A stretch of 62,796 bases of DNA, counting the filler, from Globobulimina sp. (Eukaryota), in assembly GCA_003354225.1 (NCBI GenBank). It is 38 parts of 38 records of this genome, joined end to end, with 100 filler letters (N's around TTAATTAATTAA, not from the genome) between each part and the next. Parts side by side here need not be neighbours in the genome. Positions count along the whole stretch, not along the records: positions 61,243 to 62,796 come from PIVH01014900.1; 37 more parts are not named here. One strand, written 5' to 3'. Shown here piece after piece: positions 28,152-62,796 of this stretch. The first letter of the stretch is position 1, and each line of letters begins with the position of its first letter. The notes beneath the pieces were generated by a model, which saw only the letters and a list, made by a program, of their open reading frames with translations, did not search any database and had not been told where the DNA came from. Made by a program: the position numbers and the translations under genes.

Positions 28152-29706
28152 TTTTTGAGACGGTCCATTTATTAGCTTCTTATTATTATCGCCGACGTGT
28201 TTACCATTGACATTGATTGGTTGCGTCTCAGTTGTTGGAAACTTTCGTTTTCGCGGATTTTTGGTACGATTAAATGCTGTGTTTAATGTAGCGGTTCGTG
28301 GTCTGATACCACTGCTATTATTTACATTATTTATATTATGATTAATACTTTGTTTCGATTGTCGCAATTTTACAAATTTATGTTTATACTCATTTACATC
28401 ATTGGTTAATTTCTTAATTATTTTGTCTTTTTTATCCACCTCTGCACTCAGCCGAGTGTGGTCTCGCTGTAAATTATTGAATTCCACTCTGGTTTGGTGA
28501 TGATTCGCATTCTTATTACTCTGTGCATCTCTGCTCACTGTTAATTTAGAAATATCTTTCTTGTAATTCCGATTATTCATTTTCAAATTATTTATTTCCT
28601 TCTCTTTCTCTTCCAAATCGCGTTTAATTTTCTTCAATTTCAGTTTGAAATCACTAAGTTTATTATTATTGTGGTTATTGTTATTATTCTGATTCGGCTC
28701 ATCATTCGGTTTGTCATTCTTCTGTGCTTCGCCCAACTGCACTCTCCGCACTCTATGCGCAAACTGCAACGTATTTAGCGACTCTTTTACATCAAATAAT
28801 TCACACGAAATATTGCAAAACATAGCGGCACGCGAATTACCACCCAAACAATCATACAATAAATATGTTAATTGGCTGTCTCGATATGGAATATGTTTCT
28901 GTTTGGTTTGCAATGAATTTATAACATTCCCCAACGCAGACAATGATTTATTTATACTCTTCGATTCGCCAAATGCCGCGCCAGTGGCACCCGTTTTTTT
29001 TACTCGCTCACTCCCCGCCAAATCAATTAATACTAAGCGCGATGTGCTCTTTTTCGAGATAATGTCAATGAATATTAAGGCATGCGACCGACTGGAATGA
29101 GCATTCATATCTGTTTTGCCCGTCGCGCGATTCTTATATGCAATGTTTATTAACATATCGCGTACATTGTGGGTATCCATCACCTCCGTTTTAGTTAAGC
29201 CCGGCACCAATACTTTCTTTCCACATTTACTTAATTTCGCTTTTAAATTGTGTGGATTTATATTATTTATATGTGAATTGGGATTGTCATTTGCATTCAC
29301 ATTTAAATTATTTAATAAATCGCGAATTTTCTCGTTGTAAATCTCCAAACAACTGAGATATAGCTTCATCTCTCTCTTATTATGTTCATTGTTTTGCTCA
29401 TTTTTTAATTTAAATAACATATCAAAGGAACGATAAATAACCCCGGGATTATTATGTGTCCCTTCCATCGTATACGTCTTCCCCGAACCCGTTTGTCCGT
29501 AGGCAAATATACACACATTATATCCATCCATGGCGCTATGAATCAATGGCTTTATATCTTCGAATATGACATCCTGAGAGGTGTTTGGTTTATAAATCTG
29601 ATCAAAATTAAATTCTTTGTTGTTCTGATCATTGCCATCTGCCACCATCAACGTCTCCTCATCCAAACACGTCGTGGCCATCAATTCCTGCCCACCATTC
29701 TTATTC
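28152..29706 (-). CDS. Kinesin-14-like motor domain followed by coiled coil, partial
   Basis: DGYNVCIFAYGQTGSGKTYTM, NAHSSRSH, LIDLAGSER, HIPYRDSQLT. Confidence 0.92.
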
Positions 29707-59588: not shown

Positions 59589-60803
59589 CAACAGTTCTCT
59601 AAACAAAAATTAGTGTTGGATGATATGATTGAAATCGATGAGAATGAACAAAACCAAGATGATGCATTACCATTACAATTGGCCATGAAATATAAATTTG
59701 TTACTCCATGGACCTCTATGATTGTTGTTAAACAAAAAGAGGGAAAGAAAAAACCAAAAATAGTGGATGAAGATATTCAAAAATTGCATGAAGCACTACA
59801 ACTATTTGAAAGGAAAGAAGCACATTTAGAGAAAAAGATTTATATATGTTTAAATAACGCAAAAACAAAATCAAACCGCAGAGATAAAAAGGGTGCGTTG
59901 TTTGAAATAAAAAAGAAGAAACAGTTTGAAAAAGAAGAAACAGTTTTAATACAAGCTAAAAAGTTGAATATAGACAGTCAAATTATGGTTTCCGAAGAGG
60001 ATAATCACAACAATGGAACATTAAAAGCAATGAAAACTGCACTAAAAACAATGAAAACGGATGAATTGATAGAAGATATAAATGAAGCAAGCTCAATGCA
60101 GATGGAAATGAATGATGCAATGTCACAGCCTTTAGGAGATCTAGATGTGTATGATGATGATTTAGAAGCTGAATTAGCTGAGTTAGAAGAAACGGAAGCT
60201 GATGAATTGTTGAATGAAATGCCTGTACATGCTTATTATGCTTCGAATTGTAGCCAATTGCAAGATGATGGCATGATATGTGAGTTTGGTGTACCCTCTG
60301 TGCCACAAAAAATAATAAATACTGTGGATGAGGACAATGAATTGGCTGAGTTAGAGGCGATGATGAATGGTTCAACAGATCAGGATGAGAAAAGGCAAGA
60401 TTTGGTGTCGACGTCTAGATTCGTGGTTGAATCAGAAGAGAAAAAACAAGTAAAAAAAACAATTGAAGCATATAATGATAAGGAAATAAGAATAACATTT
60501 GAAATTATTAAATCATCGAAAGATTCGGATACATGTCGTGTGTTAGCTACGTTTTATAATAAAACATCAGAGGATATGGAAAATTTTAGTTTTATTGTGG
60601 ATATTCCAGAATATATTAACTTACAAATGCAAGCAGCGAATGGCACAAAATTGTTGAAAGAATCAAAGAATACAATAAGTCAAGAGTTTGAATTGGATAA
60701 TACCAAATATGGGGACAAACCATTTGTGGTGAATATGAAAATAACTTTTATACATAATTCTAAACAATGTGAAATCTTTACAACTGTGCAGATTTCTGTA
60801 TGA
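59589..60803 (+). CDS. Fusion ORF: ITIH/VIT-vWA C-terminal motif + Snf7/ESCRT-III domain + gamma-adaptin ear domain, 5' partial
   Basis: LAMKYKFVTPWTSMIVV; KKGALFEIKKKKQFEK..MSQPLG..DDDLEAELAELE; AYNDKEIRITF..ATFYN..NFSFIVDIPEYINLQMQAANG..ISQ. Confidence 0.75.
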   Translation, partial: QQFSKQKLVLDDMIEIDENEQNQDDALPLQLAMKYKFVTPWTSMIVVKQKEGKKKPKIVDEDIQKLHEALQLFERKEAHLEKKIYICLNNAKTKSNRRDKKGALFEIKKKKQFEKEETVLIQAKKLNIDSQIMVSEEDNHNNGTLKAMKTALKTMKTDELIEDINEASSMQMEMNDAMSQPLGDLDVYDDDLEAELAELEETEADELLNEMPVHAYYASNCSQLQDDGMICEFGVPSVPQKIINTVDEDNELAELEAMMNGSTDQDEKRQDLVSTSRFVVESEEKKQVKKTIEAYNDKEIRITFEIIKSSKDSDTCRVLATFYNKTSEDMENFSFIVDIPEYINLQMQAANGTKLLKESKNTISQEFELDNTKYGDKPFVVNMKITFIHNSKQCEIFTTVQISV

Positions 60804-61242: not shown

Positions 61243-61632
61243 ATTATTTAAAGAATTGTCCTTAGCCAAATAATGGGCGAAGTAGCAAACATATGCGCCA
61301 CAAACTAAACTCAGTTCACTTTGCAACCTAAAAGGTGAAGTTTTGTAAACTCCTAATTGGTTCATAAAATGACCGATTTCTTCGCCATAGAAGCCTGGAG
61401 ACTTCGCGAAACTATCCACAAACAATACTTCACCTGCACTAACATAGATCAATAACCAATGGCCCCACTTTTCATGACTCGAAGCGGAGTTGCAACAAAT
61501 TATGTTTGGCTTATTATAATCGATAAAAGTTTTAGCCAAATGCAGTTTGTCGCTGCTGTATGTACCACGAAAATATGGGGCTACCGATTTATCGATCGAA
61601 CCTAATATTTTATCAATCTGTTCTGTGTTCAT
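61243..61632 (-). CDS. Adenain-like cysteine protease (Maverick/Polinton PRO), 3' partial
   Basis: FRGTYSSD, GHWLLIY (His), FVDSF (Asp), LQSELSLVCGAY (Gln, Cys). Confidence 0.9.
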
Positions 61633-62796
61633 TATGATGTTCTTTGTTCGCCAGCCGATCCAGGAATATAACTTAGTTTCACGTTTCGTTCTTGATCGAT
61701 TTGAATTTGGCTTTGAAACACACAGATGAAGAAAAATCGATATGACGGTCGTTGTCCTGGTGTCAGTTCCAAATGAATAGACGTCTTTCCTTGGGATACT
61801 TCTTGACGATAAGCTCCAGATACAACATCGTTTGACAAAGGAAACACATGCACTGTGTAAGAACTGGCGAAATCTTCCATAGTTATATGTGGACCCAAGT
61901 TACTCTCCTCTGTCACACCCAAAGCTTTCATCAATTCCATATATTCGTGAGCGACATGATACTCGCTTCCACCTGCTGGGTCAAACTTTGGAGTATAGGG
62001 TACAGAGGGTATTCTTGTGCCTTCAAATTCGCCTGCAAAGTTTACATAATGTGAAACTAGGCTAACATTTAAATTATATTTAATTACATTGTGCGGACGT
62101 TATTCCTACAGATTCAAAGAAGAAAGGATTGTTGCTAGCCGAGCCTAGTGCGCCGGTAGTTTTCACTGCGAACATGAACACTTGCAAAGGCATTTGTCCA
62201 TTGCATATAGTTGTGTCGAGTCGGGTTTGTCCATCAGAGACTTCTATCGGTCCAAGAACTATAACCAAAAGTTTTATCATCGGTTAAGAGAGATAACAAT
62301 GTATGATTACTTTCGACTCTGTTAAAATTATATTTAGCTGGTATTCCCATGGCGAGTTGAGAATTATATGCATTCATCAATCCTTCTTGCATTTCTTTGC
62401 GCACCACTTTAATCTTACAGTCCAACAGTGTCAACTTAGGTAGTACCTCTTTTTGCGCAGCATTGTAACAAAGTCTAAAATGCATAGATGATTTGCCAAT
62501 ATTATTCTTTCTACGCTTAAATTTACCTGAATGTGTCTTTGGCGTGACGGAGAGTAATGCGCATTCCAACTTTATTGATCAGCATTTTTAAACTACGGCT
62601 CAATGGAAACGGAAATCGCCCATAAGTTTCCATTTCTCGTCCAGATAGTATCCATTTTCGACGAGACAGAAATCCTGTGTTTACAGCTTTAGTTTTATCT
62701 GTTTCGAGTGTATTAAATTGACCACTAGTATCTTTAGCGAAACATAAAGCTTCCGCGAGCCAAGAATTTTTAGAACTTGTCCCATAATTAAACAAA
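61632..62796 (-). CDS. Maverick/Polinton-type double jelly-roll major capsid protein, 5' partial; introns 62475-62526, 62259-62310, 62033-62087
   Basis: NYGTSSKNSWL..KDTSG, NTGFLSR, LINKVGMRITL, AKYNFNRVE, GQMP, NNPFFF, PYTPKF, YTVHVFPL, IQIDQERNVKLSY; three GT-AG introns restore one frame. Confidence 0.88.

Follow-up and report, generated by a model that had tools for sequence, protein, structure and literature searches.

Gene content of the capsid contig

The window, by which we mean the whole stretch of 62,796 nt that was analysed, consisted of 38 unlinked contigs of 1554–1557 nt that were ordered by size and joined by N44-TTAATTAATTAA-N44 linkers. Its entire last contig (positions 61243–62796, 1554 nt) was taken up by a fragment of two minus-strand genes, and the contig ended inside both of them. 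The upstream gene, a putative major capsid protein (MCP) gene, was divided by three candidate introns. Its first exon piece (62527–62796) was open at the contig end and was followed by intron 1 (62475–62526, 52 nt, GTAAAT..TTTTAG, phase 2, 27% GC), exon 2 (62311–62474, 164 nt), intron 2 (62259–62310, 52 nt, GTAATC..TTATAG, phase 1, 29% GC), exon 3 (62088–62258, 171 nt), intron 3 (62033–62087, 55 nt, GTAATT..TTGCAG, phase 1, 24% GC) and exon 4 (61632–62032), which closed with the stop codon TAA at 61632–61634. The downstream gene was an ORF for an adenain/Ulp1-like cysteine protease (61243–61632, 130 aa), which started with an ATG at 61630–61632 and was open at the contig end as well. The capsid product began at position 125 of the family profile described below, corresponding to about 124 N-terminal residues lying off the contig, so that roughly three quarters of the capsid gene were present together with 130 aa of the protease.

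Since the contigs are not physically linked, any feature spanning a linker would be an artefact, and the genomic context of the capsid and protease genes is absent from the window because the other 37 contigs are unlinked to theirs. The composition of the capsid contig (38.5% GC, GC3 0.33) fell inside the spread of the remaining contigs (GC 0.24–0.43, GC3 0.17–0.52) and is thus compatible with the same organism as well as with a different host. A kinesin motor ORF (28152–29705, minus strand), uninterrupted over 518 codons, shared 62% identity with a transcript listed under the name of the foraminifer Ammonia sp.; judged by this single gene, the assembly may be dominated by a foraminifer or another retarian. 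For Reticulomyxa filosa, about two introns per gene with a mean length of 87 bp are listed (table in PMC13746701). A search for the intron size of the dominant organism by means of ORF pairs in the other contigs returned 839 candidates, most of them spurious, and Pfam searches of ORF pairs gave no usable split domain. Two further ORFs were recorded in passing. An ORF of 489 codons on an unrelated contig (4972–6438, minus strand) contained an RNase H domain (E 6.6e-8) and is probably part of a retroelement, while Snf7 and adaptin C-terminal (Alpha_adaptinC2) domains occurred in one 404-codon ORF (59589–60800, plus strand), an unusual pairing.

Assignment of the capsid protein

Pfam searches with the four capsid pieces yielded nothing but a chance match to GlnR (E 0.031), and PHROG searches with the same pieces gave no match. 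Likewise, a word-indexed search retrieved no longer relatives of the last exon, and no closely related DNA for it was detected in the viral and metagenome contigs scanned. When the last exon (132 aa) was used as the query of an exhaustive phmmer search, 20 proteins were recovered at E ≤0.001, including proteins of about 437 aa that matched the exon with their C-termini (27–34% identity). One entry of a collection of 15 billion proteins, P0001, shared 96% identity with the final 99 residues and consisted solely of a 99-aa ORF. Using P0007, one of the proteins of about 437 aa, as the query of a word-indexed search, we obtained 98 relatives, which were mostly unnamed metagenome proteins; some, from oysters and a mealybug, carried the name 'uncharacterized protein F54H12.2-like', a designation (F54H12.2) for which our literature search found no paper. 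From 79 of these 98 relatives (alignment A1) a profile of 435 positions was built.

Four six-frame pieces of the contig matched this profile collinearly in frames 2, 3, 1 and 2, namely exon 1 at profile positions 125–208 (50.2 bits), exon 2 at 202–263 (13.6 bits), exon 3 at 271–315 (21.5 bits) and exon 4 at 320–433 (64.0 bits), all remaining pieces of the six-frame translation having negative bit scores. When the pieces were joined with an X at the split codons, they aligned over a single domain with a score of 180.5 bits (one-target E 2.4e-57), covering profile positions 125–433 of 435, with no indel at any of the junctions, which fell at profile positions 209, 261 and 318. This collinear four-piece match is far beyond chance. 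The product was 25–28% identical to every relative except P0001.

To assign a fold to the family, P0007 was modelled by AlphaFold2 with alignment A1 (pLDDT 93.3, pTM 0.90). When the model was compared with PDB structures by Foldseek, the matches included the major capsid proteins of Singapore grouper iridovirus (SGIV), PBCV-1, Sputnik and mavirus (E 8e-17 to 2e-12, TM about 0.5–0.65). Sequence searches of the PDB gave no significant match for P0007 or A1. Against BFVD, the top match was R9XLG5 of Cotesia sesamiae Mombasa bracovirus (30% identity, E 3e-33), followed by capsid proteins of virophages, adomaviruses, adintoviruses and giant viruses. The matches of the model to viral major capsid folds indicate that the family is a double jelly-roll (DJR) capsid family. 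By homology to the P0007 family, these results support the assignment of the window product as a predicted double jelly-roll MCP of the Maverick/Polinton type, and the match of the in silico spliced product to this protein family bears out what the original prediction had proposed. The C-terminal portion of the second jelly roll corresponds to exon 4, and a model of this last exon by itself, built with alignment A4, reached pLDDT 72.1 with almost no strands. An Atlas look-up pointed to DJR/NCLDV-capsid/Preplasmiviricota-flavoured clusters at 0.97, though with low recognition, and serves as a lead only.

Three probable short introns in the capsid gene

Removal of the three introns produced one open frame of 334 codons that ended at the TAA, and their boundaries and lengths on the minus strand turned out to be exactly as originally described. 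Each length was 1 mod 3, in agreement with the earlier statement that none is a multiple of three. A retained intron would bring in a stop codon at once in the case of intron 1 (TAA), 24 nt past intron 2, and in the second codon of intron 3 (TAA), and translation of unspliced RNA would end after about 90 visible codons. All three introns started with GTAA, ended with AG and contained 24–29% GC compared to 37–46% in the exons; branch-point and pyrimidine-tract signals were judged by eye alone. To assess the choice of splice sites, every stop-free GT–AG pair within 45 nt of each junction was scored against the profile. The proposed pair obtained the top score at each junction (of 6, 5 and 5 pairs, respectively), with 180.7 bits versus at most 159.7, 176.4 and 172.5 bits for the alternatives.

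We then compared the intron positions with those in homologues. The relatives P0003, P0017 and P0239, which belong to the same clade as the window product (see below), were single ORFs and contiguous over all three junction positions, the sole gap nearby being one residue next to junction 1 in P0017. The inserts thus have no counterpart in these homologues, and together with the codon-exact junctions this agrees with the claim that the inserts are introns rather than frameshifts. A wider set of 25 related loci, comprising an IMG/VR contig (L001) and 24 metagenome contigs found with alignment A3, was examined, as had been suggested along with the original prediction, and none of them carried an intron-like insert in the capsid gene. 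The three introns shared only chance matches of 9–17 nt with each other and with the other 37 contigs (62.8 kb searched). An origin as copies of one introner family was therefore not supported within the DNA searched. Taken together, the best-scoring GT–AG choice at each junction, the intronless relatives, the absence of an insert from all 25 loci and the uniform boundaries, lengths and AT-richness indicate that the three inserts are very probably genuine spliceosomal (GT–AG) introns that are specific to, or were gained in, this lineage. From these sequence features we infer that they are spliced.

In the related loci, the capsid gene was a single ORF in 20 of the 25 cases, some of them cut by contig ends, as expected from the assumption that the capsid genes of relatives are usually uninterrupted. 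Broken copies of the family do exist and would lend some credit to the idea that the window holds a dead capsid pseudogene, in which the inserts are frameshifting insertions that were never removed and the GT and AG ends are fortuitous. Two loci, otherwise full-length, contained one in-frame stop each at profile positions that are not conserved (L003, TGA at 883–885; L018, TAG at 1522–1524), which may have arisen by nonsense mutation or sequencing error, or may point to hosts with reassigned stop codons, and three loci were frameshifted (L013, L023 and L024). In these truly broken relatives, however, there was no inserted DNA at the shifts, whereas all three inserts of the window gene are 52–55 nt long, AT-rich and bounded by GTAA and AG, and their removal restores the family alignment codon-exactly and leaves 334 codons free of stops. 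We thus regard a pseudogene as very improbable.

Since the assembly has very low coverage and is shattered into contigs of about 1.55 kb, an artefact or a chimera was considered as well. Among the public sequencing runs listed, no RNA run contained the contig. One run, X1, contained 0.81 of the contig's words, while runs X2 and X3 contained next to none. The depth in X1 was low (about 3–4x), and its contigs were DNA-like in that the introns were kept, as DNA would keep them. Separately built X1 contigs covered intron 3 (61743–62142) and introns 1 and 2 (62182–62735) and showed no differences from the window, although X1 is possibly the window's own source and hence not independent. Moreover, a chimera would not match one protein family collinearly and codon-exactly. 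An artefact is therefore extremely improbable, and we continue with genuine introns as the preferred reading.

Protease and gene arrangement

The predicted protease was aligned to that of L001 (29% identity, E 1e-14), with the motifs HW, DSF, LQS and CG in register. The L001 protein passes the Pfam threshold for Peptidase_C5 (22.0 versus a cut-off of 21.3 bits), while the window ORF alone stays below the Pfam cut-off (Peptidase_C48, 14.8 versus 20.7 bits, E 0.026), and a sequence search of the PDB gave no significant match for the protease. Thus, the downstream protease was correctly described as keeping its His, Asp, Gln and Cys residues, as seen in alignment with a Peptidase_C5-type relative. 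The capsid stop codon and the protease ATG share one base (TAATG, 61630–61634). The same overlap was found in distant relatives (L010, 1922–1926; L011, 6487–6491; L012, 7429–7433), the gap between capsid and protease genes amounted to 0–3 nt in L003, L004, L020 and L023, and in 17 of the 25 related loci the protease gene immediately followed the capsid gene. Speculatively, the TAATG might couple translation of the protease to that of the capsid protein by termination–reinitiation.

Related loci and phylogenetic position

Two related loci revealed what such elements contain. In L001 (12.3 kb), an ORF with PolB motifs was followed by an IVa2/A32-type ATPase, an integrase with rve and chromo domains, the capsid gene and a Peptidase_C5 protease. 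The first of these ORFs (1146 aa) carries what we take, by motif definitions, to be PolB-type motifs; it had no Pfam match at E ≤0.01, no PDB match and no tblastn match to phage records. L011 (11.4 kb) contained rve and chromo domains, the capsid gene and the protease. A penton gene was not identified in any related locus. The gene content of L001 and L011 corresponds to the Maverick/Polinton gene set.

In a midpoint-rooted FastTree phylogeny of 85 sequences (profile columns 125–434), the window product grouped with P0003, P0004, P0017 and P0239 with an SH-like support of 0.999. All four database members of this clade were N-terminally short, P0003, P0017 and P0239 starting at about profile position 112–134 and P0004 at about 193. 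P0020, the 90%-cluster partner of P0239, was located on a contig of 40.6 kb. Outside the clade, P0014 was likewise a short ORF, starting at about profile position 208, on a contig of 3.86 Mb. Scans for the encoding DNA of P0003 (genome contigs and viral contigs) and of P0017 (viral contigs) gave no match. The short ORFs of the clade fit capsid genes that are often interrupted and may reflect such genes; pseudogenes would explain them equally well.

Nature of the element

The contig is best explained as a piece of a Maverick/Polinton-class element with a module of the Preplasmiviricota type, in which a double jelly-roll MCP would be followed by an adenain-like maturation protease. Such an element would most likely reside or replicate in the nucleus of a eukaryote. 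With three short spliceosomal (GT–AG) introns in its capsid gene, the capsid protein could arise only from a nuclear, spliced transcript. The final base of the capsid stop codon is also the first of the protease gene, a compact arrangement as seen elsewhere in the family. Overall, we consider it likely that the contig represents a fragment of a Maverick/Polinton-class element with nuclear residence or replication and a genuine spliced capsid gene. The second copy P0001 keeps the last exon open as well. The introns were probably acquired within this lineage, and the copy on the contig is probably still under coding constraint. That the latter copy is still able to form virions is conceivable, though somewhat less likely than not.

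The main competing explanation sees the locus as the remnant of a Maverick endogenised long ago, or as a pair of domesticated host genes derived from one; its introns would have accumulated slowly after fixation, as they do in ordinary host genes, and it would no longer be part of a virus or mobile element, nor give rise to a virion. Intron gain normally requires long residence in a nuclear genome, and the annotations of oyster and mealybug genomes treat family members as ordinary host proteins. Of the window's clade, only the N-terminally short ORFs are known, with P0020 on its 40.6-kb contig, and the short ORF of P0014 on a 3.86-Mb contig points in the same direction. Furthermore, the window is devoid of other element genes: neither pPolB, rve integrase, packaging ATPase, penton nor a terminal repeat was found within the 62.8 kb. 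On the other hand, the contig is too short for further genes to be expected, the TAATG overlap is the compact viral arrangement of the intronless relatives and would be odd for independent host genes, the frames of both capsid and protease are open, and a second copy with 96% identity exists elsewhere. A remnant or domesticated gene pair hence appears unlikely, and we retain a Maverick/Polinton-class element with a genuine spliced capsid gene as the preferred reading.

The window product belongs to a distinct and well-supported clade of Maverick/Polinton capsids. According to a more far-reaching interpretation, the genes of this clade would be routinely split by host-type introns and yet functional, the elements would have gained introns without losing mobility, capsid production would depend on transcription in the nucleus and on the spliceosome of the host, and ORF-based surveys of endogenous viruses would systematically miss or truncate such genes. 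This we regard as rather doubtful. In particular, the step from the introns to an 'apparently intact', 'intron-rich polintovirus lineage', as had been proposed, goes beyond a fragment of 1.55 kb and is not supported, as the fragment contains only part of the capsid gene and of the protease, with no other Maverick gene in the window.

Implications for virus surveys

Surveys of endogenous viruses commonly use prokaryotic ORF finders, and in excerpts of Bellas et al. 2023 (PMC10120064) the use of prokaryotic gene callers is justified by the premise that endogenous viruses 'do not contain introns'. If a capsid gene requires the removal of three introns, as proposed here, this premise does not always hold, which constitutes a practical warning for ORF-based surveys. 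Indeed, the best near-identical database entry was P0001, the 99-aa ORF of the last exon, in keeping with the earlier claim that ORF-based searches would miss this capsid. Splicing of the introns would imply that transcription of the element takes place in the nucleus, and the introns would provide a dated marker of the time for which it has co-resided with the splicing machinery of one host. The value of these considerations is limited by the tiny size of the fragment (1554 nt).

Comparison with known systems

The window fragment resembles Maverick/Polinton elements (polintoviruses, adintoviruses) in the DJR MCP family, in the adenain-like protease that follows immediately on the same strand and in the near-zero or overlapping spacing between the two genes. 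The fragment displays the MCP and the protease only, whereas genes for a PolB-like protein, for an A32/IVa2 ATPase and for an rve integrase are additionally present in its relatives. Unlike these relatives (0 of 25 loci), it bears three introns of the spliceosomal type in its capsid gene. In excerpts of two studies, the core genes of intact Mavericks are described as intronless (Barreat & Katzourakis 2021, PMC8097293; Widen et al. 2022, bioRxiv 10.1101/2022.07.12.499685), and a spliced capsid gene would thus run against the usual picture. Neither the adintovirus paper (PMC8502044) nor Krupovic et al. 2014 (PMC4028283) mentions spliceosomal introns or splicing. Our literature searches brought up no paper on short introns of the conventional kind within the reading frame of a Maverick/Polinton capsid gene; Kapitonov & Jurka 2006, Krupovic & Koonin 2015 and Pritham et al. 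2007, which lay outside the search, may mention introns.

Intron-bearing elements of the Maverick/Polinton-like class are already in print. According to excerpts of Gozashti et al. 2025 (PMC11957031), maverick-polinton-like proviruses of dinoflagellates bear introners and have retained capsid genes; the authors also state that elements of this kind can harbour introns without losing function. These proviruses and the window fragment are alike as Maverick/Polinton-like elements with capsid genes and insertions that form spliceosomal introns. As far as these excerpts go, the dinoflagellate introns are copies of repeated families of introner transposons, whereas the three introns of the window are mutually unrelated. 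Furthermore, the window introns are of minimal size (52–55 nt) and all lie within the capsid coding sequence, while the same excerpts do not give the placement of the introners relative to the MCP frame.

Within the protein family itself, the 'F54H12.2-like' proteins of oysters and mealybug and the bracovirus protein R9XLG5 belong together with the window capsid; these are main-family proteins of about 430–475 aa, whereas the window protein is placed in a separate clade. The capsid family is thereby shown to be widespread in animal genomes, where it usually goes unrecognised as a capsid. Mavericks are known to occur inside bracovirus genomes. Spliced structural genes are also known from other nuclear DNA viruses, for instance the late genes of adenoviruses and the intron-containing capsid gene of mimivirus, and introns occur in pandoraviruses. 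These viruses are similar to the element proposed here in that structural proteins need splicing, but they belong to different groups, possess much larger genomes and are not integrating elements of the Maverick type.
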